Source of the DNA: a virus
Taxonomy: Duplodnaviria; Caudoviricetes
Virus record (IMG/VR): IMGVR_UViG_3300034691_000044
Span: 9,601 to 73,600 of that record
DNA length: 64,000 nt
Strand: one strand, 5' to 3'
The position numbers were made by a program, and so were the translations under genes. Within the stretch, counting starts at the first letter, position 1, and each line of letters opens with the position of its first letter. Shown here in pieces: positions 6,554 to 64,000 of this stretch. The notes under the pieces are model-generated. The model was given only the letters and a program-made list of their open reading frames with translations. It ran no database searches and was not told the origin of the DNA.

Positions 6554-8215
6554 TCACACTAAGTAATTGGAAAGCGGGCTTGCTGTGGATACGTCGTCAT
6601 CATCCCACATTCCGCCGCCCGTGCGATGATCAATCTCCTGGGCAGTCGGGGCAATTGGCTTCATCACCGAGAGCATCGAGATGGTGTCGATGAAGTCGTC
6701 TTTCTTCGACCGGAACCCGGAACTGGAAGCAAGACTGATCTCGTTCATCATTTCCATCATGATCGACCCCGTTTTGTGCTCAAGAGGGAAGTAGATCTTG
6801 TGCAGCTTGAACAGTGGGATCACGGTATTAAACCGGACCATCTTGTTCGTGTTCGGACGAATACCCGGCTTACTGCTGTTCCCTTCGCTGGTCAGGTTGA
6901 AATAGATGTTCTTCTGCATCATCTGGTCCTGAATCCAAGGAATGAAACCAGATTGTTGACCAGACACCTCCACACCCACACCAAGAGGACGCCAACGCGA
7001 AACCAAGGTGAAAAGATCAGTGATGTTGGCCGACATGTCCTGCCGTTTGCAGATACCGTCCACCCAATACCAGTCGCCGTTGTAGTTGTATGCCCACACG
7101 CTGATTACGCTGAAGTCCGCCGATTGCTTCTCGGATGTGGCGAAGTCCGTCGTGATGTAGAAGTTGAAGTTGGATTTGAAGTCCAGCACGTTCTTGTGCT
7201 TGTACCAGCCCACCTCCCCGTCTTGAATCAGCCGATCCTCTTCGGACATGATGCGAAGCATCAGTTCCTGGTTGAATGTGTCGACTTTGCCCACCTTCAC
7301 CGCAGTCTCGTACTTCTTCTTCACGAAGCTGAAGGTGAAACGATCAGCCCATGCTCCGCAGAAGTCTTCCTCTGCACAAGGGAACTGATTGCACACAGGA
7401 TACACGTTGACGCGCCAGGCCCCCGACTCGACCGCTTTATACAGCGGATCTTTGGCGTTGAAGGGTGTACCCGACCAAATGATCATGTTTCGCTCAGGAT
7501 GCAGTGCGTGGTCGACCGCCTTGTAGATTGTGTCTTCAACCGCAGCAATTACCGTCGGAGATCGTGCATCATCATCGGACAGCAAGTCATCGAGTACGGC
7601 CAGGCGTGGCCGCTTGCCCATTTCCTTGGAACCCCGGACACCGGTCTTGGCGCCGTAACCTTTGACGATGAAGATGTCCCCATCCAGGTTGCGGAACTTC
7701 CAGCGCATATCCGTGAACTCGGTGCCATTAGGACAGTCAGGCGCCTTCTTCGGCATGTACTTCTGCAAGAAGTCGCTCTCTTCGTAGCGGAACTCCAAGT
7801 TCTTGCGCATGTTCTTCACGCCGTTCTCCATGGAGTCCGAGACGTATAGAGCCAGCTCAATCCGGCCGAAGTTAGGCAGACCGCCGTACATTCCGATGTA
7901 AAGGAATAGATATTCCCCCATCAGTGTGGTCTTTGCCGCACCCCGGAACACCATGTTCGCCAAGCGGGGGAACTTATTCAGTTCGCCCTTTTCGTCATAC
8001 TCAATGTCGTCAATGTTGTCTAACATCTTCAAGTGGAGCACAGGCGTTTCGTTTTCCTCACCTTGCCCACCATTCACCAGCTTAATGAAGGTCACGAACT
8101 CCAAAGCGAACTGACTTGGCACGTAGCGGGGGTCGATGCTGTAATCGACATTATCCAACCAGCTATCCACCGAACGCTGCACTTCATCGACGGGAACTTC
8201 AACAACGGCTGTCAT
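6554..8215 (-). CDS. terL: Terminase large subunit (N4 gp68 family)
   Basis: 553 aa; FRGAAKTT Walker A, LAVLDDLL Walker B, GTPFN, TTDFATSEKQSADFSVISVW and DDFIDTISML nuclease motifs. Confidence 0.95.
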   Translation of the reverse strand: MTAVVEVPVDEVQRSVDSWLDNVDYSIDPRYVPSQFALEFVTFIKLVNGGQGEENETPVLHLKMLDNIDDIEYDEKGELNKFPRLANMVFRGAAKTTLMGEYLFLYIGMYGGLPNFGRIELALYVSDSMENGVKNMRKNLEFRYEESDFLQKYMPKKAPDCPNGTEFTDMRWKFRNLDGDIFIVKGYGAKTGVRGSKEMGKRPRLAVLDDLLSDDDARSPTVIAAVEDTIYKAVDHALHPERNMIIWSGTPFNAKDPLYKAVESGAWRVNVYPVCNQFPCAEEDFCGAWADRFTFSFVKKKYETAVKVGKVDTFNQELMLRIMSEEDRLIQDGEVGWYKHKNVLDFKSNFNFYITTDFATSEKQSADFSVISVWAYNYNGDWYWVDGICKRQDMSANITDLFTLVSRWRPLGVGVEVSGQQSGFIPWIQDQMMQKNIYFNLTSEGNSSKPGIRPNTNKMVRFNTVIPLFKLHKIYFPLEHKTGSIMMEMMNEISLASSSGFRSKKDDFIDTISMLSVMKPIAPTAQEIDHRTGGGMWDDDDVSTASPLSNYLV

Positions 8216-53283: not shown

Positions 53284-54072
53284 ATGAGTCTGAACCCTTT
53301 TGCCAACACCGTTAATACCACGAACGAACAGATCGAAACGGACAGTGACCGTCTCGGTGGTGGTTTCGTCTGGGACGGCGGTGCTTACCCTGTAACCATC
53401 CTGGCTGCATACGCTGGCAAGTCCAAAGGCGGCGCCGGTAGCATGTCTTTCGAAGTCCAAGGCGACGACGGCCGCAAGTTCAAGTTCACCGAGTGGGTAA
53501 CCTCCGGCGATGCCAAAGGCAACAAGCCGTACTACGAACGCGACGGTAAGAAGTCCTACCTGCCTGGTTTCAACAACGTCAACGCGATCTCGATGTTCTG
53601 CGCGAAGAAAGAGCTGAACGCTCTGGCTTTCGAAACGAAAATCCTGAAACTGCGCGACTACGAGCAGAAGAAAGACGTTCCGACCGAAGTGCCAATGGCG
53701 GTCGAGCTGATCGGCAAAAAGTTCATCTTGGGCCTGGAAAAGCACGAAGTGAACAAGACCATCAAGGTCGGCAACGAATACCTGCCAGTTCACAAAGCTG
53801 GCGAGCCTGGCGTACCGGACACCAAGTTCGAAAACCAGATTGGCAAGATCTTCTTCGCCGACAACAATGCGACCATCGCCGAGCTGCGCGAAGCCAAGCA
53901 GAAAGGCCAGCCTGTCGCTGCTGACTTCTACCCGAAATGGGTCGAAGCCAACACCGGTAAAGTCGTGAACAAAGTCAAGGCTGACAAGCTGGTTGCGCCT
54001 GCTGGTGCCGGTGGGCCTGCTGGCACGCCTACCACTGCTGGTGGCGAAGCTGTCGACTCCCTGTTCGACTGA
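53284..54072 (+). CDS. ssb: Single-stranded DNA-binding protein (N4 gp45-like)
   Basis: DRLGGG, SKGGA, WVTSG..KGNK.YY..DGKK.YLPGF, C-terminal SLFD. Confidence 0.9.
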   Translation: MSLNPFANTVNTTNEQIETDSDRLGGGFVWDGGAYPVTILAAYAGKSKGGAGSMSFEVQGDDGRKFKFTEWVTSGDAKGNKPYYERDGKKSYLPGFNNVNAISMFCAKKELNALAFETKILKLRDYEQKKDVPTEVPMAVELIGKKFILGLEKHEVNKTIKVGNEYLPVHKAGEPGVPDTKFENQIGKIFFADNNATIAELREAKQKGQPVAADFYPKWVEANTGKVVNKVKADKLVAPAGAGGPAGTPTTAGGEAVDSLFD

Positions 54073-54116
54073 ACACCCCCATGGGTCGGGTAACCGACCC
54101 TTCTCAGGAGCTGTAC

Positions 54117-54668
54117 ATGTCTACCAAAGACGAAGCTGTCACCGAAGCACAGATCCAGGCCCTCGGCCTTACCAAGGCGCCACGGGTCACCCCTGCCGCT
54201 CTGGACGCCATGATCAAAGAGCAGTCCCTGCTCAAGATCGATGGCCTGGGCATGCTGTGCCAAATCACCCTGCACAACGGCTTCTCTGTCCTGGGCAAAA
54301 ACCTGGGCGCGGTCTCGGCCGAGAACTACAGTGAAGAGCTGGCGAAGAAATTCGCCTACGAGGACGCCCGCAACCAACTGTGGCCGTTCGCCGGTTTCCT
54401 GTTGGCCGAAGACATCCATCGTGGCAACCGCCCACTGACCCAGGAACAGCGTGAGCTGCCTGATCATGTGCAGAAGGTGTTGACTGAAATGTTCCAGTAC
54501 GCTTCCCGCTTGCAAGGCATCACCGAATTTTTCGATGAAGTCGACAGCGGAAAACTGGACGTTTCGGACATGGCCGCCGATGAACTGCAAGACCTTCGCC
54601 AAACCGGTGTGTTGCTGGCCAAACTGGTCAATGTGACCCAGGGTCGCCTCAACCGCGCTGGCGTGTAA
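54117..54668 (+). CDS. N4 gp49/Sf6 gp66-family domain fused to helical-hairpin domain (possible nucleotide-signal sponge)
   Basis: APRVT..L.NGFSV.G..VSAENY.EE..K.A..A..LWP..GFLL then LPDHVQKV..RL...FFD..Q....L..RL. Confidence 0.75.
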   Translation: MSTKDEAVTEAQIQALGLTKAPRVTPAALDAMIKEQSLLKIDGLGMLCQITLHNGFSVLGKNLGAVSAENYSEELAKKFAYEDARNQLWPFAGFLLAEDIHRGNRPLTQEQRELPDHVQKVLTEMFQYASRLQGITEFFDEVDSGKLDVSDMAADELQDLRQTGVLLAKLVNVTQGRLNRAGV

Positions 54669-55231
54669 TGGCACGCCTCAGTGTCGCGGGACACGATCCA
54701 AGTTCCCGTAACTGGGGCATAGCCGGTGGAACGATTGACACCGACACCGGGCAACTGACCGTCAAAACCCTCCGGGTTGTGCGGGCTGAACCGCTCGAAG
54801 GAAAGCAGGTACGGCAGAACTCACAAGATCTGCGCACGGCAAACCAGTTATATGAGGGCGTAGCTCCCTTCACAGCAGCGAGTCTTACCTTCGCCGAAAT
54901 TCCCGTTGGGAGTCAAAGCGCCCGCGCCTCGCTATGTTCTGGTATCTGCATTGGGGTTTTGGGCAGTCTCCGCGCCAAATCTCAATTCGTCGAAGTAACG
55001 CCCAACGAAGTCAAACTTGCGGCTGTAGGTGACCGAAAGGCTACCAAGAAGCAAATGATCGAGTGGGCGATAAAGAAACACCCCGAGGCCCCCTGGCCAC
55101 GGAAGTCCAACGGAGAAATCCTGTTGGGCGATGCGGAACACATGGCTGACGCACTGGGCGCCATCTATGCCGGTCTCCAGACCGAAATTTACAAACAAAT
55201 CATCCAATTTTACCGAGGAACGAAACAATGA
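54668..55231 (+). CDS. RuvC-like Holliday junction resolvase (N4 gp46-like)
   Basis: GHDPSSRNWG, AEIPVGSQSARA, ATKKQMI, EHMADA. Confidence 0.85.
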   Translation: MARLSVAGHDPSSRNWGIAGGTIDTDTGQLTVKTLRVVRAEPLEGKQVRQNSQDLRTANQLYEGVAPFTAASLTFAEIPVGSQSARASLCSGICIGVLGSLRAKSQFVEVTPNEVKLAAVGDRKATKKQMIEWAIKKHPEAPWPRKSNGEILLGDAEHMADALGAIYAGLQTEIYKQIIQFYRGTKQ

Positions 55232-55563
55232 AACTGACTCTCTCCCACGCTGACGTAACCCTGGCTCTGTGCGAATTCCTGGCCGCTCGTGGCATGACTG
55301 CGTTCGATCCGTCCAAGGTCACCGCTGACTTCGCCTTCAAGCGCGGTTCGAAAGAACTGCTGTGCGAACTGGACACCGAGCCGAAGGCACCGGTCGAAGT
55401 AGCACCTGTTGCAGCGAAAGCGGCAGCAGTTGCCAAAGAAGTCCCGGTTGAAACTGTGGCTGATGCCGTCGCCGATGCTGGCGTTGCTGTTGCCGCCGAA
55501 GAAGCCGGTGTTGCCGTAGCTGGCACCGAAGCCGTAGCTGGCGACGACAACCTGTTCGACTGA
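55228..55563 (+). CDS. N4 gp47-like protein
   Basis: Coupled; Ala/Val/Glu-rich tail ending NLFD. Confidence 0.7.
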   Translation: MKLTLSHADVTLALCEFLAARGMTAFDPSKVTADFAFKRGSKELLCELDTEPKAPVEVAPVAAKAAAVAKEVPVETVADAVADAGVAVAAEEAGVAVAGTEAVAGDDNLFD

Positions 55564-55565
55564 TC

Positions 55566-56036
55566 ATGACCCAGGCCGATGAACGCAGTAAAAAGCGTCA
55601 TTGGTTCCTGGCAGTCTGGTCGGTGCCTCAGCCGGGGGCGTATGTCCCCCTGAGTGCATTTGTCTGGTCGAAGTCCCGTGCTGTCACGATCCCCATTTTA
55701 AATGGCGCCCGTGAGAGCCGTAAGATTCCTGAAGGCTCGACCTTGATCAACGTGGCCTATGTTGGCTACATGACCGAGTTCGAGCTGACAGGCACTTCGC
55801 AGGCGCCAGTAGCGTCAGTCACCTCTGCCGCTTACAACCTTGGTTTAGAGCAAACCTTTACGGTGCCCGACCCAAGCCAGTTGGTGAATGCCTTCCCTGA
55901 AGACGACACCTTCAATCATCAAGAGTGGGCATTAGGCGCGGCCGTTGGCCGTGACATGCGTACCAAAATTGTCGCAGCGTCAACCCGGCCTCCGGGCAAT
56001 GACCTGCCAATCCAGGAAAATGATCATGTTCAGTAA
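55566..56036 (+). CDS. Hypothetical protein (N4 gp48-like)
   Basis: NVAYVGYMTEFE motif; synteny. Confidence 0.65.
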   Translation: MTQADERSKKRHWFLAVWSVPQPGAYVPLSAFVWSKSRAVTIPILNGARESRKIPEGSTLINVAYVGYMTEFELTGTSQAPVASVTSAAYNLGLEQTFTVPDPSQLVNAFPEDDTFNHQEWALGAAVGRDMRTKIVAASTRPPGNDLPIQENDHVQ

Positions 56037-56469
56037 ACTCGCTGGCAAGCTGTTCCGCGGCGCCAAGAAAGTCGAAAACCGCGACCTGATGGAAGCAATC
56101 GTCGGTGGTGGCCTGTTGGTCGCCGCAGCCGATGGCGAAATCGAGAAAGACGAGCTGAATAAGCTCGAAAAGCTGATTGCCGGTAACGAAAACCTCAAGC
56201 ACTTCGGCGCGGACATCGGTAAGACGATCCGTCGTTTCTCCGATCTGCTGGAAGGCGACTTCCTGGTCGGCCGCAGCAAGATCCTGCGCGAAATCCGCGA
56301 TATCGCCGGTAACGATGATCACGTCGAAGACGTGGTACTGAACGTTCTGGCAATCGCCAAGGCCGACGGTGAAGTCGAACCGGAAGAGCGCAAAGTGATC
56401 GAAGAGATCGCACGTGAGCTGGGCTACCGCCTCAGCGAAGAACACTTCGAAATCCGCAAGGGTGCCTAA
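56026..56469 (+). CDS. terB: TerB-family tellurite-resistance-like protein
   Basis: VENRDLMEAIVGG.LLVAAADGEIEKDE..IAKADGEVEPEE. Confidence 0.85.
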   Translation: MFSKLAGKLFRGAKKVENRDLMEAIVGGGLLVAAADGEIEKDELNKLEKLIAGNENLKHFGADIGKTIRRFSDLLEGDFLVGRSKILREIRDIAGNDDHVEDVVLNVLAIAKADGEVEPEERKVIEEIARELGYRLSEEHFEIRKGA

Positions 56470-56673
56470 GTGGCTCACCTGAAAGCTGCACTGATTGTGC
56501 TTGCCTTCTTCATTGTCGTGATCGGTATCGGTTGGGGCTTTGGATGGAGCAAGTGCAGTTGGTACGGCTACCAGACAGAGCGTGATGTGAAGTTCAGCGG
56601 TACTATCGGTTGCATGGTGAAAGCCAGCGGCGGATGGGTGCCTCGTACTGAGATTCGCACCACGCTCGACTGA
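56470..56673 (+). CDS. Small membrane protein
   Basis: N-terminal TM, Cys pair. Confidence 0.65.
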   Translation: MAHLKAALIVLAFFIVVIGIGWGFGWSKCSWYGYQTERDVKFSGTIGCMVKASGGWVPRTEIRTTLD

Positions 56674-56835
56674 GCAACACGGAGGGGACTGTGTCATTCG
56701 TACTCCGGGAATAAAAAGAACGAATAATGGTGTGATCGGTACTGAACACCAAAACCAACTGAAGTTGGCAAACAGTACGCCGTTTGTTACCGCGAAAACT
56801 GTTTGGAAAACAACGAGCCGGAATTTTGAAGTTTT

Positions 56836-56970
56836 GGTGCATGCACACAACTGCCGTCACTGATAAACATGGTAGCTCCATGAATTGACGTGACATCAGC
56901 AGGACTGGTTGTTTATGTGTGAATACTGGGTCGCTCCCGGTATCCAAGTTCGATTCTTGGGTGTACCGCC
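56836..56970 (+). ncRNA. tRNA-like RNA (~135 nt) with acceptor stem and T-arm but no D/anticodon arms
   Basis: GGTGCAT pairs with GTGTACC; CCAAG-TTCGATT-CTTGG T-arm; long internal helix. Confidence 0.65.
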
Positions 56971-57071
56971 GAATTGGGGCCGGTTTAGTCCGGATAAAAG
57001 CTAAGATCTTGCATCTACTGCGAGGCACCCGATCCTATCCTTGAGCCAGGATATAACGGCCCGTCTACACC

Positions 57072-57358
57072 AGAACGATTCTGGTTATGTCTGTTCGAAC
57101 ATAAAATCGTACCCAATATCGAGTTCAGAATCGGTATTGGAAAGCATCTGGGATGGACTACAGAAACGCCCGCACTTAGAGGGCAGATACGGAAACAATG
57201 CCCAGATGCTCTCCAATACTCATTCGTGAGTATGTTGTACCGAAATACTGTTTGTTGGTGATATAAGTCCACGCGCAGCGAGTGAGCTGCACTATGCGTC
57301 CCCTGGCTTTGCAGGCCCACAGTGGGGTTACCGATTCAAAGACATAAAGTATCGTTCT
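57072..57358 (+). ncRNA. Large structured RNA domain
   Basis: Nested long-range helices AGAACGAT/ATCGTTCT, TTATGTCT/AGACATAA, GAATCGGTA/TACCGATTC, AGCATCTGGG/CCCAGATGCT. Confidence 0.6.
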
Positions 57359-57479
57359 CCGAAGTCCGGTGCTTGCGAGCCCGTAACGCTCGCGTAATAA
57401 CCTATAACCTTGTGAGTTGGTAACTCACCCGAAACATCAACCGCCGTAAGCTGACTCTTCGGAGAGGTTTACACATGGA

Positions 57480-57562
57480 GGGTGTTTTGGTCGTGCAACT
57501 GCCACTCAGCGATGAGTGTTGCCATGGGAAGCTCGGCAGTTGCACTACCAATACACCCACCA
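57480..57562 (+). ncRNA. Rod-like RNA ending in ACCA
   Basis: GGGTGT/ACACCC, TTGGT/ACCAA, GTGCAACTGCC/GGCAGTTGCAC helices, GCGA tetraloop. Confidence 0.55.
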
Positions 57563-57578
57563 ACAGAAGGAACGCAGT

Positions 57579-57920
57579 ATGTGCCGAAAATGTAATGAAG
57601 CTCTGCTTGCAGCCGCAACCGCTGCCAATTTGCTAGCAGAGGCATCAGCAACCCTGTACAACATCAATCAGCAGGAAGCAGCCAATACCCTGGCTAATGC
57701 CGCAGCTGACCTGTTCAAACCGGCTGAAGAAACGCAGGCTCCAGGTGCCCCGGGCACGGCCAGCAAAAACGAAGGTTCGGTCGACCCTATGGCCGCGGCC
57801 CGTGCTGAAATCAACGCCCAGTTGCCAGAAGGTATGACTATCGGCGACGACGATTTGGTTTACCTGAACGGTAAGGCAATCGGCGAAGCTATGATCATCC
57901 GTCGCCCGACCAAGCATTGA
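57579..57920 (+). CDS. Hypothetical protein
   Basis: AAGGA RBS, 113 aa. Confidence 0.7.
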   Translation: MCRKCNEALLAAATAANLLAEASATLYNINQQEAANTLANAAADLFKPAEETQAPGAPGTASKNEGSVDPMAAARAEINAQLPEGMTIGDDDLVYLNGKAIGEAMIIRRPTKH

Positions 57921-58126
57921 TCCGGGGGATCAAGCGCCTTTTCTCAGTCTGTATCGGATTAGGTGCCTTGATCGCCTTTCTCACCACAGTTGTCGTGTTA
58001 GGCTACGCATTCAAGATCATTGCCTTTGTCCTGGCAGTGGTGTTGGTGCTTGCCTTCATACTCTTCCTGGTTTGGGCAGCGATCAAGGAATTCGTGATTG
58101 ACGCAATGAAAAAACCCCCTAAGTAA
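57917..58126 (+). CDS. Small membrane protein
   Basis: Two hydrophobic segments, coupled TTGA. Confidence 0.65.
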   Translation: MIRGIKRLFSVCIGLGALIAFLTTVVVLGYAFKIIAFVLAVVLVLAFILFLVWAAIKEFVIDAMKKPPK

Positions 58127-58137
58127 GGGGGTTTTTT
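58109..58137. terminator. Bidirectional terminator between middle genes and vRNAP
   Basis: AAAAAACCCCCT-AAGTA-AGGGGGTTTTTT. Confidence 0.9.
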
Positions 58138-58140
58138 GTT

Positions 58141-61100
58141 TTACAGCAACTTGATTGCTGGAAGCTCTTTAAGAGAGCCTAAGTAGCCAAGTGCCCCATC
58201 TTGCAGCGGGTTATTGCCAATCTTGTTGAGCCAGCTGGAATCCATGATGGAATCCAAGCCGGACCACATATGGCCAACTGCCGCCAACATCAGACCGCGT
58301 GCAGGCTTCTCACGCACAAGACGCATGATCACCTTCTGAATACGCAAGTAGTACTTGGTAAACATCACAATGCCCATATCGTTCAGATATTGCAGTGTAC
58401 GATGCGAAGGTAGGTCGTAGTTTACGAAACTGTCCTCAGCTTGGCGCAAAGCGTCAGCAGTACTCAGTGGATCTTTCGTGCGGGTAGTCAGGTGCTCAAA
58501 GAGCGCATAACGTGCCACCAAGTCAGACAACTGAGTTGTTTGGCTCAAGAATTTATACGTGGCGGTGTCATGGGTCATATAGACCTGCTTACCGACAGTA
58601 CGCATCCAAGCTGGAACCTTATCAGTGAACTTCTCTACCTTACGGGCCAAGTGAGCTTTGTAGGTGTAGCGGTCGTCGTCAACTTCAACGTCTTCCACGA
58701 TAGTAGGCATCAAGCCTGCATCCACCAACGGTTTGATCGGGTTACGTGCCAAACGATCCTGAATTTCCAGAATCTCTGCTTCAGCAGCAGTGTTATCAGC
58801 GAAGTACCCAATTTCTACAGCTTGTTGCAATTGCAGCAGGCGTTTCGAATCCTTACGGAAATCGAGAGCACCTTTGATCGCAATGGCGTGCGAAGCAGCA
58901 GCCTTGCGCAAAGGAACACCTTCCCAAGCCAGTAATGTCATGTTCGACGTGATGTTGCCCGCCAGAGTGAATATGTTCTTAACAACAAGAATGTCTTTCA
59001 TCTCTTTAACGAGGGTTTGCATGATGTCTTCAGCTTGACCTACGCGAAGCGCAGCTTTCTCGCCGTAGATCGCAGAAGTAGCAGCAACTAGCACCTTTTC
59101 AAACATGTTGCGGTCACCTGGCAATTCGTCAAACGAATTGGTCAGGCTGAACTTGCGATAACCAAAGATCAGGTCGAGTTGGTCAGCCGGCACATACATT
59201 GCGTCGTCTTTCCATACCTTACGGATCTCTTGCTTGGTGCTTTCTGGCAACAGGCGGTAGGACTCAGCCAAACCTTTATCTTTGCTGTCCGCAGACACAC
59301 GAATGTACGAAGAAGGACGCGAAGTGTAATCAGCGCGGTATTGATCATACATCGAGCGAACAACGTCAGTGTTCTGTTGAACAGTGGACACTTTGTCAGC
59401 AATTTGACCAGCCATGACTCCCAGCACTTGATCCATCGAATTATCGCGGTCCAAAAGGACATCGCGGTTTTGTTCGGTCATCATGTGACGGTAGTCAGCT
59501 ATTCGGCCGTCAGGCGCCAGGGTGGGGACCATGTGCCCAGCTTGTGCCTTGCGTGGGTCGTAAGACAATGGGCGGTGGAACAAATCAGCCACTGCCTGGG
59601 CCTTCTGCTGTGCAATCTGCTGACGTACAGCGGCAGAGGTCTGGTTGCCGGCCATCATGTTGACAGCTTCGGTGACCGGGCTAGAACCCTTGGCATTGTT
59701 GCCGGTGAAAGACATGGCACCAGTAAGCAGCGCAGTTTGACCGGCACTACGGCGAGTCATCAGTACGCGGCCTGTGGTTTTCAGACCTTTCACATTCGGG
59801 TCCATTTGCAGGGCAGTGCCCACGGTGTAGCCGGCGCGCTCGTGTGCAGCTACGTCGCTCTTGGCTACCAGCAAGACTTCGATCTTGTTGTCGTGGATCT
59901 CAGCCACATAGCCGGTCTGTTGCAGCGCTTCGGTGCCTTTGAACAAGTCAGCAGTTGCTTTGGCTTGGAGACCGGTGTGCAGCTTCAGCATGTAGTCCAC
60001 GCCGTTGCCGTCGGTGCGATTCATCTCAGTGCGCAGAACTTCACGAGCATTGCGCAGATCGACATCACCGCTGTAATCCAGGGCATATACACCCACGAGT
60101 TGCTCAAGCAGAGGAATGACAGCTGCATTGGCAGCGACTTTCTTCTTGGTGCCGAACATGGCCGCAATGTTGCCGGTCGACAGCATCAGGTTGGCCGAAG
60201 TCGAACCGCCCACCACCTTGTGGTGCGCCAAGTCTTTGGCCTGGCTGATCATGTACAGATAGTTCGGGGTCATCGCAGTTACCTGTGCTTCCAGGTCCGA
60301 ACGGTATGCAGCCATTGCAGAAGGGTCTTCCATGAGGTCGCGCAGACCATCTACACCACGAGCCGCGGCGATTGCCTGGGCGTTGGTCCGCAGGAACACA
60401 CGAGTCAGCGCATCACGTTGCACCTGGGTCAAATCTTGGCCCTGGTTTGCAAATGCTTCGTTTACCGATGCAGCAGTGGTCTCGATAACCGATTTGCGTT
60501 GTTGCTCGTTGGCCTTGGCACCTTTGAACAATTCAGCAGCCAAACGGCGAGAATCGTACACACCACGCCATTCGGTCAGCATGCCCATCACCACACCGTG
60601 TCGGCTCTTTTGGGACTGGTCACGCATCATTGTGATGGCGTTCAGTACGGCATCCAGCCGGTTACCGGCAGCAGTGGATACCGCAGCGCCGAGACCGGCA
60701 ACAAACGGGATCTTCGACTTGCGAATGAAACCGGCGCGGCCCAGTGCATCAGCTTTTTCCAGAATCGAGTCACCTACACCGGCCAGCGCAGTTTCGAGCT
60801 GGTCAAAGTGGTTCACCTTCTCCTGATCCATGCGTGCTTTACGCTTGGCCTCAATATCCACCAGCTGCTCTACCAGAGTGCTCAGTGCGACGTTACCAGA
60901 GGTGCCCGGGACGACTTTAGTTGCCAGGCGGGCAAAGACTGTCATTGCACGACGGAACAGCTCAGTCAGCTTGCTGGTGATCGGCAGACCCTTCAACGGG
61001 GTCTCGAAGTTGTTGGTCGAGAAACCAAGTGCATTACGGACTTCAGCCGAGGCCAGGCCCAGGGCTGCAAAGCGTGCCAGGTAATTGTTACGACCAGTTG

Positions 61101-64000
61101 CGCTAGCTTGTGGGCGGAACAGGAAGTCCCACTTCGCTTTAGCGACATCCTTCTCATTCTGGCTTGCGGTTGCCCAGTCACCCGCGTGTAAGTTGCGACC
61201 ATCCGAGTTCAGCTTCGAACGTGCTTCCTTGAACAGGTTTTCCAGACCCTGGCGAACGAACAGAGTTTCTTTCGTTTCCATGGCGTGGGAAATGGTCGCT
61301 TCTACCGATTCCAGCACAAATGCTTCTTGCTGGGACAGGATGAACTGGCCAGTTATTGCCTGGGAGCTGAACGGAGTTTTGCCGGTGCTCACCGCTTTCA
61401 GGAACACATCCAACGGGGTCAGCGCACGGTTTGCCGATGCTGCCTCTTTGAATGCACCGTATGGGCCGTAGACCGGGTTAACAGTCTGCGCCAGCAGGTC
61501 ACGCAGGTACTCAGCATGGGCCGCATCAGTCTTGTGGTTGCCTACGGTAGCTAGTGCGTCAAACACCTGCTCAGCAGTCATAGCGTTGATGTGGTCGATG
61601 GCGTCTTCGTACTTGTGAGTTGCAGTCGCACGCTTCTCTTGTGCCTGGGCCGCTTCACGGAACAGAACAGCAGAGTTGGCGATTAAGTTGGCCATGCCGT
61701 TGTTTGCCGACGGAGTGTTGGCACCAAACAGCATTTCAGTCAGCGACTTGATGAAACCCTTCAGGCCGTCGAGGATCGATCGGTCTTTCTGTGGCACCGA
61801 TACCTGGCCCAGCACTTCACGTTGGAAGTCTTGGTTGGACAGGCCCCAGGAGACCAGCTCATGCACGTTCGACGTAGCGTTGCGGTACTTAGCAGACAGC
61901 ACTCCATTGTTGGCGAGGAAGTCTTCAGCTTGGGTACGCAGCACTTCCAGATCCGCTACAGCGCGGCCGGCCAGGGTGTTCTTACCTTGGTTTGCGTCGA
62001 TCAGGTTTGCCAGAGCAGCATGTACCAGTTCATGGGTCAGCAACTCAGGAGTGATACCCGATTCAACGAAGTCCGGGGATTTAATGAACAACCCGGCTTG
62101 GTCGTTACGCTGTGCGTACCAACCGCGGGATTTATCCACGCCTTCACCAAATGCGCCTTCTGGTCCGGTCTCGGCAGTGATGTAGGTCACCGGCATACGA
62201 GCAGAGATGCCTTTCTTGGCCATCTTGAGCACAGTCTTCTGGAACGGGTTCTGCACGTACTCAACCAGCGAATCAACGAGGTTGTGAGCAGTCATACCTG
62301 TGGTGTCCAGCAGTTGCACCAAGTTCACGTCGGACTGTACGACAGGGGTGCCCAAGCGGCCCCATACAGACAATTTCGCTTCACTTGCACCGTTTACCGC
62401 TTCAACTACTTCGGCAGCTTGATGCTCAGGCAGCACTTGCAGGGCATCGGCCAGAGTCCGGTTACCCGAAACCATGGAATCAATTACCTGCACAACAGCC
62501 GGGGTCTGCTCAAGCGAAGCCAGAGTGTTGAGGGAAGTGGCTGGCGCCAGAGTCGTTACCGACGTGTTGGACAGCTCAGCTTGCTTGCCTGCAACATACA
62601 CAGCGGAGACGATGCTTGCTTCGGCGTCCAGTTGCTCAGCCACAGATTCAGCCGCAGCATTGAAGGTGGAGCCCACTTCGTCCAGCTTGGCCTGTGCTTT
62701 TGCACGGTCAGCGTCGGTCACGATGTAAGAACCGCCATCGGTAGCGTATTGGCCAATTGCCTGCATGTTGCTCAGCATATTCAGCTTATCGGTGTCCGCC
62801 TGGGTCGTAGTCTCACGAATAGCGGTCAGTTGCTCAGCAATAGAGCCACGCTTCTTCTCAGCCCGGGCAACCATCTTCTCGCGCAGCTTAGGCTGAATGC
62901 GTGCAGCCAGCTCAGGGTTCTGCATCACTTTGGATACGCCGGCCAGGACTTCATCGAGCATGTTGCTCATTGCGGTCGCGGAGGAGTATTCCAGCATGGT
63001 GTTGAACGTCGCCTTGTTCAGCTCCTGGCCAACCTTGGCTACATTGTTCAGGTCTACGCCCAAGGCGTCGTGGACGTTCAGTGCTTCCATCTTTCCGTAC
63101 ACAGCCGAAGCAATAGCCGAGTCGCTGGAGTGGATGGAGGTAATGAAAGGCATTACACCTGGGTCGATGTCCTGAGTGCGCGAAGACGACAGGCGAGTCG
63201 AACCAATACCCTGCATGGAGCCGTCCGGGGCAATGGTGTTAACCATTTCACCGAAAGCGACTTCTTGCTCGTAGGCAGCAGACGAATCGAGCGAACGCTT
63301 CGACTTGGCCATGTACATACCAGCTTCACGTTGCTTCGATGCCTGAGACATAGCAGTTTGCAGGATCGGGGCCATGTCGCCCATCAGTGCATCTACTTGT
63401 GCCTGTTGCTCTTTAGTTAGCGTGCGAATGGCGGCGCCAGCATTGTTACGTGGCACATCCTGGCTGGTCGACTCAACGAACTCAGTCACGCCATCACGCA
63501 CCGCGTTGAACAGATCAAACGACAGTTGTGCTGTCTGGTTGATCACGTTCCGGCGAGAAATGAAGGTGGCGTAGTTATCGGCCAGTGCTTTCTCGGTTGG
63601 CTCACCCAGCAGCTCATAGAACGAGCGTTTCAGCGCGTCTTGCTGTTGAGTAGTCAGCTTGGTTTCCAGGGCACGCTCATAACCCATCTTCACATCCAAA
63701 GCGAACTTCGGTGAGCGAGTCAGGGTATTCACAGCACCAAACAGAGCAGCAATGTCAGCCTGCTTTTGTTCCAGAGTACGCAGACGACCTTCTGCGTCGT
63801 GAGTTTTGGCTGCATCTTCGATACGGCTGTAGATCGCTTCAATGAAGCCGTCGGCCATGCCTTGTACCGCGGTAGTCGGGTTGGACCCGAACATCAGGGC
63901 GGTCAGCGGCTTCTTGATGATGTTACGGCCTTTAGAGGTCACGCTGCCTTCGGCAGTTTGCAGTTGGCCAGTAATGACCGACATAGCGTCGAGCTGGCCT
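58141..64000 (-). CDS. Virion-encapsidated RNA polymerase (N4 gp50-like), C-terminal part; start lies outside window
   Basis: More than 1947 aa with no cysteine seen; motif B RNIIKKPLTALMFGS, motif C LNVHDA; C-terminal FVNYD..LQYLNDMG..FTKY.LRIQK. Confidence 0.95.
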   Translation of the reverse strand, partial: GQLDAMSVITGQLQTAEGSVTSKGRNIIKKPLTALMFGSNPTTAVQGMADGFIEAIYSRIEDAAKTHDAEGRLRTLEQKQADIAALFGAVNTLTRSPKFALDVKMGYERALETKLTTQQQDALKRSFYELLGEPTEKALADNYATFISRRNVINQTAQLSFDLFNAVRDGVTEFVESTSQDVPRNNAGAAIRTLTKEQQAQVDALMGDMAPILQTAMSQASKQREAGMYMAKSKRSLDSSAAYEQEVAFGEMVNTIAPDGSMQGIGSTRLSSSRTQDIDPGVMPFITSIHSSDSAIASAVYGKMEALNVHDALGVDLNNVAKVGQELNKATFNTMLEYSSATAMSNMLDEVLAGVSKVMQNPELAARIQPKLREKMVARAEKKRGSIAEQLTAIRETTTQADTDKLNMLSNMQAIGQYATDGGSYIVTDADRAKAQAKLDEVGSTFNAAAESVAEQLDAEASIVSAVYVAGKQAELSNTSVTTLAPATSLNTLASLEQTPAVVQVIDSMVSGNRTLADALQVLPEHQAAEVVEAVNGASEAKLSVWGRLGTPVVQSDVNLVQLLDTTGMTAHNLVDSLVEYVQNPFQKTVLKMAKKGISARMPVTYITAETGPEGAFGEGVDKSRGWYAQRNDQAGLFIKSPDFVESGITPELLTHELVHAALANLIDANQGKNTLAGRAVADLEVLRTQAEDFLANNGVLSAKYRNATSNVHELVSWGLSNQDFQREVLGQVSVPQKDRSILDGLKGFIKSLTEMLFGANTPSANNGMANLIANSAVLFREAAQAQEKRATATHKYEDAIDHINAMTAEQVFDALATVGNHKTDAAHAEYLRDLLAQTVNPVYGPYGAFKEAASANRALTPLDVFLKAVSTGKTPFSSQAITGQFILSQQEAFVLESVEATISHAMETKETLFVRQGLENLFKEARSKLNSDGRNLHAGDWATASQNEKDVAKAKWDFLFRPQASATGRNNYLARFAALGLASAEVRNALGFSTNNFETPLKGLPITSKLTELFRRAMTVFARLATKVVPGTSGNVALSTLVEQLVDIEAKRKARMDQEKVNHFDQLETALAGVGDSILEKADALGRAGFIRKSKIPFVAGLGAAVSTAAGNRLDAVLNAITMMRDQSQKSRHGVVMGMLTEWRGVYDSRRLAAELFKGAKANEQQRKSVIETTAASVNEAFANQGQDLTQVQRDALTRVFLRTNAQAIAAARGVDGLRDLMEDPSAMAAYRSDLEAQVTAMTPNYLYMISQAKDLAHHKVVGGSTSANLMLSTGNIAAMFGTKKKVAANAAVIPLLEQLVGVYALDYSGDVDLRNAREVLRTEMNRTDGNGVDYMLKLHTGLQAKATADLFKGTEALQQTGYVAEIHDNKIEVLLVAKSDVAAHERAGYTVGTALQMDPNVKGLKTTGRVLMTRRSAGQTALLTGAMSFTGNNAKGSSPVTEAVNMMAGNQTSAAVRQQIAQQKAQAVADLFHRPLSYDPRKAQAGHMVPTLAPDGRIADYRHMMTEQNRDVLLDRDNSMDQVLGVMAGQIADKVSTVQQNTDVVRSMYDQYRADYTSRPSSYIRVSADSKDKGLAESYRLLPESTKQEIRKVWKDDAMYVPADQLDLIFGYRKFSLTNSFDELPGDRNMFEKVLVAATSAIYGEKAALRVGQAEDIMQTLVKEMKDILVVKNIFTLAGNITSNMTLLAWEGVPLRKAAASHAIAIKGALDFRKDSKRLLQLQQAVEIGYFADNTAAEAEILEIQDRLARNPIKPLVDAGLMPTIVEDVEVDDDRYTYKAHLARKVEKFTDKVPAWMRTVGKQVYMTHDTATYKFLSQTTQLSDLVARYALFEHLTTRTKDPLSTADALRQAEDSFVNYDLPSHRTLQYLNDMGIVMFTKYYLRIQKVIMRLVREKPARGLMLAAVGHMWSGLDSIMDSSWLNKIGNNPLQDGALGYLGSLKELPAIKLL

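Follow-up and report, generated by a model that had tools for sequence, protein, structure and literature searches.

A conserved structured-RNA locus in the tRNA/small-RNA island of an N4-like Pseudomonas phage

Background

What does a phage keep in 905 nucleotides (nt) that hold no convincing gene? The question is raised by a gap at positions 56674-57578 of the window, as we call the whole 64-kb stretch of DNA analyzed here, out of the 73.6-kb virus record IMGVR_UViG_3300034691_000044. The window comes from an N4-like (Schitoviridae) Pseudomonas phage, the nearest named relative of which is Pseudomonas phage phCDa (Shizishanvirus); the C-terminal 500 amino acids (aa) encoded by its large minus-strand open reading frame (ORF) 58141-63999 are 85% identical to the phCDa virion RNA polymerase. 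The gap is located between a gene block that includes the gp46-like and TerB-domain genes and two small genes followed by the convergent virion RNA polymerase gene, and consists of four parts, namely module A, the tRNA-like element B, a weak linker and domain D (coordinates are given in Table 1). The comparisons described below show that this island is a real conserved structured-RNA locus, an uncatalogued family with a narrow distribution, of the kind of large structured phage RNAs found at tRNA islands. Judging from the sequence comparisons, domain D would be a processed stand-alone RNA that acts in trans, a reading which we favor over that of a giant leader for the gene starting at 57579 and to which we assign a probability of about one half.

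Domain D is conserved as a structured RNA

A search with the C-terminus of the polymerase yielded 21 related viral loci, the DNA of which was compared from the gp46-like gene to the polymerase gene. Domain D is present at full length in nine related contigs (L017, L003, which is phCDa, L004, L005, L006, L007, L008, L016 and L018; nhmmer E-values of 1e-130 or better), and two further loci, L009 and L010, retain just its last ~170 nt (E-value 6e-14). The ten full-length copies, including that of the window, represent approximately five lineages: the window and L017; phCDa; L004; L005 and L007; and L006, L008, L018 and L016. Every unit of the domain occurs in the same order across the ten sequences at 54-75% identity, and insertions are confined to the inside of helices.

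RNAalifold applied to the alignment of these ten sequences (A2) predicts 119 pairs in 17 helices. Standard pairs are formed by 96.9% of the cells, compared with 37-44% when the partners are slid by 1-3 columns, and 40 of the 119 pairs are changed on both sides, compared with 3-8 in the slid controls; none of 500 shuffles reaches either value, a margin that is somewhat flattering because the structure was derived from the same sequences as those tested, though it is large. An earlier sequence-only reading of the window, made without database searches, had described the gap as packed with helices, a cluster of unrecognized structured RNAs, and the homologues bear out the conserved structure, with changes on both sides far above the slid and shuffled controls. 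Among the helices that it had singled out, GTGAGT/ACTCAC, CTC-TTCG-GAG and those of the terminal rod are real and covarying, and GCGAGC/GCTCGC, which RNAalifold missed, covaries by eye in the alignment. Because the last 158 nt of domain D show a mean column identity of 86%, compared with ~40% identity for the adjoining protein in the same ten phages, selection acts on the RNA itself.

Hairpin H1 is absent from the RNAalifold consensus as well and is counted as a real helix alongside GCGAGC/GCTCGC; its distal stem takes four different forms among the ten sequences, three of which carry an insertion of 31 nt. The main helix of the rod comprises 23 pairs with 99.6% of the cells paired and four pairs changed on both sides (32 pairs if the two apex hairpins are included).

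Two strands of the domain have competing partners. The segment GGTATTGG (57133-57140) can pair either with CCAATATC, forming H1, or with the downstream CCAATAC (57214-57220), which belongs to the RNAalifold helix 57130-57148/57205-57223. The 5' strand of the rod foot (57482-57490) can form an alternative helix of 9 base pairs (bp) with 57429-57437, which is intact in 9 of 11 sequences and interrupted by a single mismatch in the remaining two; the variable column of the rod foot covaries with both of its competing partners. A switch may explain these pairings, as may a folding pathway or three-strand junctions. An exhaustive column-pair search for long-range helices in domain D returned 4-bp candidates only, possibly due to chance, and the helix that would close the domain, between its 5' end and the Shine-Dalgarno (SD) sequence of the next gene, is weak.

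The most conserved 35 nt of the domain contain, at 57088-57112, the 8-nt palindrome GTTCGAAC as well as two copies of TCGAAC, a T-loop-like sequence, and the rod apex loop holds CCATGG, both variants of which are self-complementary too if wobble pairs are counted. Upstream of domain D, on the minus strand of L005 (8665-8735) and L007 (8743-8808), the H1/H2 region is weakly matched a second time (nhmmer E-values of 0.008 and 0.15, respectively), which hints at an internal duplication. The island copies of L004-L009 contain several hairpins with near-identical (C/G/U)(A/G)AGTAAG loops closed by G-C pairs, a recurrence suggesting that the loops bind the same ligand or contact one another; one related loop occurs in the window (GCAGC GAGTGA GCTGC, 57275-57290).

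Coding capacity, folding and strand

Mechanical translation of the gap yields ORFs of 141 aa (56603-57028, minus strand), 101 aa (57015-57320, minus strand) and 62 aa (57041-57229, plus strand), such that the region is not literally free of ORFs; what holds of the original claim that none is convincing is that relatives retain none of these frames. A stop codon splits the 141-aa frame in L017, the 101-aa frame is broken into three pieces in phCDa, and the remaining relatives have just short pieces in common with the ORFs of the window. The indels in domain D point the same way: in comparison with each of nine relatives, the majority are not divisible by three (from 1 of 1 to 16 of 18, per relative). 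The assignment of the gap as non-coding was thus correct.

The G+C content is 0.44-0.52 within the gap and 0.53-0.64 upstream. The plus strand of the 905 nt has a folding energy of -313.6 kcal/mol (z-score -5.68; equaled by none of 20 shuffles), in agreement with the initial impression of a region packed with pairable segments, and the minus strand folds nearly as well (z-score -5.26). The pair cells of domain D, in a structure itself predicted on the plus strand, include 112 G-U compared with 13 A-C, and four G-U pairs are invariant; because of this excess, the plus strand, the same as that of the neighboring genes, is the predicted RNA strand.

A function of the island at the level of DNA, as a replication origin, a set of hairpin promoters for phage RNA polymerases or a recombination site, would be compatible with the G+C content below that of the flanks and with the equally good folding of both strands, and N4-like polymerases are described in the available text of the LUZ7 paper (PMC9163698) as using DNA hairpins as promoters. 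However, such an element would not explain why G-U pairs are kept on the plus strand only. Moreover, the helices of the island, with 5-28 pairs and varied loop sizes, are unlike the short promoter hairpins with 3-4-nt loops that this text describes for LUZ7, and neither direct repeats nor iterons were seen in the alignments; we consider a DNA element highly improbable.

Even less credence is due to the notion that the island is what is left of a tRNA cluster, decaying and without function, or that it encodes small proteins. Mechanical ORFs do exist but, as shown above, are not kept in relatives. A remnant is called to mind by element B and by an apparent 3' tRNA half that abuts domain D in phCDa, both of which resemble tRNA relics, and by the 5' half of the phCDa gap, which is not unusually folded (z-score -1.05). 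Nevertheless, domain D and the core module described below are more conserved than the adjoining coding sequence and show compensatory changes, which already contradicts a remnant in the case of domain D.

Comparison with known RNA families

ARAGORN predicts no tRNA or tmRNA gene in the whole window, and no Rfam model matches it at gathering scores. When E-values of up to 10 were allowed for 56400-57800, Rfam returned microRNA-type hairpin matches alone, far under the gathering scores, with no tRNA and no member of the tmRNA clan; both ARAGORN and the Rfam tRNA model do detect tRNAs in relatives and in N4. Searched at gathering score, 11 related loci matched nothing but tRNAs, and at E-values of up to 10, L006 and L009 yielded the tRNA of L009 and otherwise only microRNA-type hairpins that scored far under the threshold. 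Group I and II introns, RNase P RNA, 6S RNA, riboswitch families and other large RNAs had no Rfam match in the window, L006 or L009. The earlier statement that no canonical tRNA is evident is accordingly confirmed, and no family in Rfam matches the gap. An RNase P-like or T-box-like reading, considered on account of CCGAAGTC and the UGG loops, was dropped given that the expected long-range partners do not covary by eye. No sigma-70-like promoter was detected on the plus strand in 54000-58400, and no terminator follows the rod.

The gap is the tRNA/small-RNA island of N4-like phages

The genomic location of the gap is informative. In N4, the 1.5-kb gp47-gp48 gap that follows gp46 (NC_008720, 32113-33631; L067, 8114-9632), for which RefSeq lists no feature, contains four tRNA genes (Asn, Ser, Thr and Pro) on the same strand, as identified with ARAGORN and Rfam. 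A tRNA-Arg(TCT) or tRNA-Met gene is found inside the equivalent gap of L009, L010, L012 and L015 (the shared 3' module of L009 has a real tRNA-Arg ~430 nt upstream), and other tRNAs in relatives sit just ahead of the polymerase gene. Littlefix has an 885-nt gap at the same place, with one doubtful 38-aa ORF. The gap of the window is this tRNA/small-RNA island of the family, with all functional tRNA genes lost here. It shares with the N4-like tRNA clusters the place, the strand and, in element B, an acceptor-like stem and a T-arm-like hairpin; it differs in that no tRNA is detectable and that domain D lacks a cloverleaf unit. The species I and II RNAs of T4 are small stable RNAs that are co-processed with the T4 tRNA cluster. 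The sequence-only reading had likened the gap to a phage tRNA cluster of that type, an apt analogy in view of its location at the tRNA gene site of N4-like phages and at the site of the processed small RNAs of LUZ7.

The orf69-orf70 gap of LUZ7 (NC_013691) has the same gene neighborhood as the gap of the window: a gp46-like gene, two or three small genes, the gap, further small genes, the last of them for a ~66-aa membrane protein, and the convergent virion RNA polymerase gene. According to the available text of Putzeys et al. (2022, PMC9163698), the LUZ7 gap is a late transcription hotspot with a start site inside it, which gives rise to sRNA1-3, all <250 nt and one apparently processed, and the LUZ7 reads are mostly <250 nt. 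Both gaps are non-coding, the strand of the neighbors is reported to be transcribed in LUZ7, and in both, the last element, right before the next ribosome-binding site, is a long hairpin that forks at its apex. In contrast, the LUZ7 gap is only 398 nt long, compared with 905 nt here, and the LUZ7 RNAs are described as starting from a site in the gap, whereas no sigma-70-like site was detected on the plus strand here (54000-58400). The record of PEV2 (NC_031063, 43577-43738; L041, 3578-3739) has a syntenic 53-aa 'gp67.1' with the annotation 'very strongly transcriptionally expressed', possibly a non-coding RNA comparable to those of LUZ7.

A pseudoknot core module extends to Littlefix-like phages

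The 3' part of domain D contains a core module that, in an alignment of 13 sequences (A5), consists of a pseudoknot hairpin, CCC, a spacer and a helix with an invariant GCTGAC, in this order. The three pseudoknot pairs, between the loop GG(U/C) and an upstream (A/G)CC, are intact in 12 of the 13 sequences after a one-column correction of the alignment for L015. At the first of these pairs, eight sequences have A-U and four have G-C; at the middle one, L015 has U-A instead. If the alignment is left unshifted, the first pair is A-U in seven, G-C in three and other in two among 12 distinct rows. The helix 57446-57472 comprises ten pairs with 100% of the cells paired and six pairs changed on both sides (12 distinct sequences). 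For the core module overall, 12 of 19 pairs are changed on both sides and 94.7% of the cells are paired, compared with 29-47% in slid controls.

A model of the last 157 positions of domain D (R1), built from the ten phages plus L009, matched through its first ~70 positions Littlefix-like phages outside the model (L013, E-value 3e-6; L014, which is Littlefix, 1.6e-4; L015, 5e-4; and, weakly, L012, 0.039). These R1 matches to L012-L015 are the independent ones, given that the second model, R2, was built from alignment A5 and so matches L009 and L012-L015 by construction. R2 produced no significant new match (the E-values for L031 and L011 are 0.06 and 0.62, respectively) and none in LUZ7, PEV2, L019 or L020, the records without a match including three N4-like ones besides LUZ7 and PEV2, and neither model found anything in L039 or in the complete records of LUZ7 and PEV2. 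Viral contigs scanned with exact and degenerate patterns, and a metagenome scan, yielded mostly contigs of known members and no new member; among 26 stretches from the pattern scans, 22 were new, none of which matches R1 or contains the hairpin. L030-L032, with only a 17-mer in common, and L036, an unrelated high-G+C coding stretch, were rejected as members. A blastn search of GenBank phages with two versions of domain D found phCDa only. The domain D family, known from ~11 contigs, is thus narrowly distributed, and the pseudoknot module common to Littlefix-like phages provides a compact target for structure work.

A stand-alone RNA or a leader of the downstream gene

The position of domain D immediately upstream of the 113-aa gene raises the question of whether it serves that gene. 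All ten sequences have the rod foot, SD and ATG equally spaced, and in nine of them both this spacing and the sequence AACAGAAGGA are preserved. The downstream protein is homologous in all ten phages, belongs to no Pfam or PHROG family and has only four database relatives. The SD is predicted to be unpaired with a probability of 0.55-0.79 in the ten sequences, compared with 0.34-0.40 for the RNA as a whole.

Under one alternative, the 113-aa gene has in domain D a giant cis-acting leader (riboregulator), in which the rod and its competing strand form an expression platform that responds to some signal and sets translation or processing. Apart from the constant spacing and the homologous gene, this alternative could account for the peak of conservation beside gene 57579, extending into its first ~140 nt, for the covarying column that the alternative helix 57429-57437/57482-57490 shares with the rod, and for the location of the core module 6 nt (L012) and ~60 nt (L013) ahead of the next ORF. 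We nonetheless consider a leader unlikely, if worthy of serious attention: the SD is predicted to be mostly open in all ten sequences, which is also an argument for a role of domain D in trans, the core module of Littlefix is located ~190 nt from the next annotated gene, and no riboswitch family matches. Furthermore, 530 nt and at least 17 helices exceed by far any leader known to us, which likewise counts against a leader and for a role in trans.

A different possibility is that the island is a cluster of independent small RNAs as in LUZ7, with domain D made of unrelated modules kept together by descent. Module A occurs without domain D in L012; L009 and L010 retain only the 3' part of the domain, and the Littlefix-like phages only a ~90-nt core; the islands of more distant relatives share short blocks only; all supported helices of domain D are local; and the LUZ7 reads, as far as reported, are mostly short. 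Against this stands the collinearity of domain D noted above, with no unit lost or swapped among the ten sequences, and we hold such a cluster to be more doubtful than a leader. The sequence-only reading had left the choice between several stable RNAs and one ornate RNA; its non-coding structured locus is upheld, and, with domain D forming a single collinear block in ten sequences, 'one large ornate RNA' fits domain D better.

If domain D is indeed a stand-alone RNA acting in trans, the island would be transcribed with or between the rightward genes (the syntenic place in LUZ7 is transcribed late and from its own start site), host tRNA-processing and RNase E-type enzymes would cleave it at two places, element B and the rod foot, and domain D would persist as a folded RNA that might bind a protein or a tRNA or self-assemble. 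The pseudoknot-rod end would also set the 5' edge of the downstream mRNA.

Several observations weigh against this preferred reading of domain D. The same gene family always follows the domain at a fixed distance, and the two competing pairings would also fit a cis-acting leader, neither of them including the SD. No well-supported long-range helix unites the domain, the only predicted one having three pairs; therefore, its unity as one RNA is inferred from block conservation alone. LUZ7 and PEV2 have the same place but no similarity in sequence or fold, as seen with R1 and R2. Finally, the ten sequences amount to only about five lineages, such that the cell counts overstate the independent events, and the prediction of the structure on the plus strand biases the G-U versus A-C count.

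Comparison with large ornate RNAs

The nearest parallel in function is the LUZ7 hotspot, which has the same place and no homology; in kind, the nearest are the large ornate phage RNAs GOLLD and ROOL. In the available text of Kretsch et al. (bioRxiv 10.1101/2024.12.08.627333), the 3' region of GOLLD is conserved, and its 5' region varies and can include a tRNA. The locus studied here resembles GOLLD and ROOL, as described there, in being encoded by a phage at a tRNA island (beside or around tRNA genes) and in comprising hundreds of nt with many helices and no known protein partner; as in GOLLD, the 3' region of the island is well conserved and the 5' region is variable and tRNA-bearing in some relatives. 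The GOLLD and ROOL models have no match in the window or the 11 related loci at gathering scores, nor in the window region, L006 and L009 at E-values of up to 10. Given that no Rfam model matches domain D, it is not a member of GOLLD or ROOL. The systems also differ in host and phage type, domain D being known, from sequence alone, in ~11 contigs and here in a lytic podovirus of Pseudomonas. A screen of IMG/VR for covarying viral intergenic RNAs produced 8495 candidates of 29-151 nt, according to the available text (PMC10690425); source collection and covariation approach are the same, and, compared by the reported size range only, these candidates are far shorter than domain D. A literature search found no paper on the island RNA or on the phCDa gap.

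It is tempting to speculate that domain D, perhaps with module A and element B, represents a new class of giant ornate phage RNA, a Pseudomonas/N4-like counterpart of GOLLD and ROOL and an RNA-only machine, which would self-assemble via its partly self-complementary loops or dock a tRNA via the T-loop-like and UGG loops. We regard this extension as improbable, slightly more so than the cluster of independent RNAs. If it were true, a giant ornate RNA would occur in a lytic phage of which both the isolate, phCDa, and the host are cultivable. Large non-coding RNAs with many helices are rare, and most of those known are ribozymes, riboswitches or RNA assemblies. Here, such an RNA would belong to a phage family with a well-studied transcription program and to a locus that is a known transcription hotspot in LUZ7; expression, processing, structure and deletion phenotype are directly testable in phCDa grown on Pseudomonas fluorescens, and the results would help to explain how N4-like phages use their variable tRNA/small-RNA island.

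Module A, element B and the linker

Module A is present in L017, L004, L005, L007, L008 and the more distant L012, the homologues having been identified with blastn. In the alignment of these six sequences with the window (A4), 9 of the 38 predicted pairs are changed on both sides; taken alone, the fold of the module is not unusual (z-score -1.33; 23 of 200 shuffles equally good). The helices TGGTGT/ACACCA and CAAACAG/CTGTTTG, picked out from the sequence by the earlier reading, are real and covary. Its CCAAC/GTTGG helix is nearly invariant, with a one-sided change to G-U in one of the seven sequences, and the loop-loop contact CGGTA/TACCG that it had suggested does not hold up, since L008 and L012 replace the TACCG-bearing hairpin yet retain CGGTAC.

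Element B matches the tRNA-like unit proposed earlier in that its minimum free energy (MFE) fold consists of a 7-bp acceptor-like stem (56836-56842/56963-56969) next to a T-arm-like 5-bp hairpin with a 7-nt TTCGATT loop; there is also an 8-bp extra hairpin, and one long arm replaces the D and anticodon arms. The resemblance is limited to the acceptor/T half, there is no CCA end, and neither ARAGORN nor Rfam, even at E-values of up to 10, calls the element a tRNA. It is found in the window and L017 only, with different 3' tails, and between the two, one hairpin retains its pairing despite two one-sided changes. In our reading, element B is a relic or a mimic specific to this lineage. The linker is kept in L017 alone among the relatives.

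Table 1. Features of the gap and of its surroundings (window coordinates)
Feature	Position	Strand	Description
Gp49/66-family gene	upstream of the gap	+	
RuvC-like gp46 homologue	54668-55231	+	upstream of the gap
Two small genes	between the gp46 homologue and the TerB-domain gene	+	
TerB-domain gene	~56026-56469	+	
67-aa membrane-protein gene	56470-56673	+	its stop codon is the 5' edge of the gap
Module A	56676-56822	+	five-helix element of ~145 nt, directly 3' of the stop codon of the upstream gene
Module A helices	56678-56684/56703-56709, 56728-56733/56746-56751, 56755-56759/56764-56768, 56769-56775/56799-56805	+	small inner helices besides
Element B	56836-56972	+	tRNA-like MFE fold; z-score -2.25, 6 of 200 shuffles as good
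Linker	56973-57035	+	two small hairpins; z-score -0.50, 57 of 200 shuffles as good
Domain D	57036-57565	+	~530 nt, collinear array of at least 17 helices; ends 13 nt before the next start codon
Hairpin H1	57113-57140	+	CCAATATC ... GGTATTGG; folded in 10 of 10 sequences
Pseudoknot module	57400-57428	+	hairpin 57412-57417/57423-57428; loop GGU 57419-57421 pairs with ACC 57400-57402 (H-type)
Helix GTAAGCT/GGTTTAC	57446-57472	+	encloses the CTC-TTCG-GAG hairpin; bears the invariant GCTGAC
Rod with forked apex	57476-57562	+	87 nt; apex hairpins 57504-57517 and 57518-57532; foot ends in ACCA
SD (GAAGGA) and start codon of the 113-aa gene	57566-57581	+	at a fixed distance from the rod
113-aa gene	57579-57920		its ATG at 57579 is the 3' edge of the gap
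69-aa membrane-protein gene	57917-58126		downstream of the 113-aa gene
Virion RNA polymerase gene	58141-63999	-	convergent, after the two small downstream genes

Presence in sequencing runs and variation around the island

The island or part of it is present in 20 listed runs from 11 studies, of which four runs were examined, as contigs only. In the RNA-library run X14, one contig covers 54707-55422 and 55545-56817 and another covers 57566-58105; adapter letters are attached to the contig ends at 56817, 57566 (the base that follows the rod) and 58105, and no listed piece bridges the island. As these are loose ends from one study, and as the depth of contigs cannot rank the parts, we give them no weight with regard to transcript ends, absence of the domain D RNA or expression. 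Contigs of run X2, which is probably DNA, cover 57106-57525 with 12 other letters and only show that domain D occurs in other samples.

The surroundings of the island vary among relatives. The TerB-domain and 67-aa membrane-protein genes (56026-56673) are missing in phCDa, L005, L007 and L016, and an X2 contig that joins 56459 to 56670 indicates that the membrane-protein gene alone can also be absent. L017, which is 95% identical to the window, has an 84-nt tRNA-Leu(AAG)-like gene (7207-7290) in the interval that separates the last small gene from the polymerase gene, for which the window has just 14 nt (58127-58140). Elsewhere in the window, contigs from four runs, one of them an RNA library and the others probably DNA, join 51531/51533 to 52320/52322 and omit ~790 nt; because the joined form is found also in the runs that are probably DNA, it shows the existence of insertion-free relatives rather than splicing.

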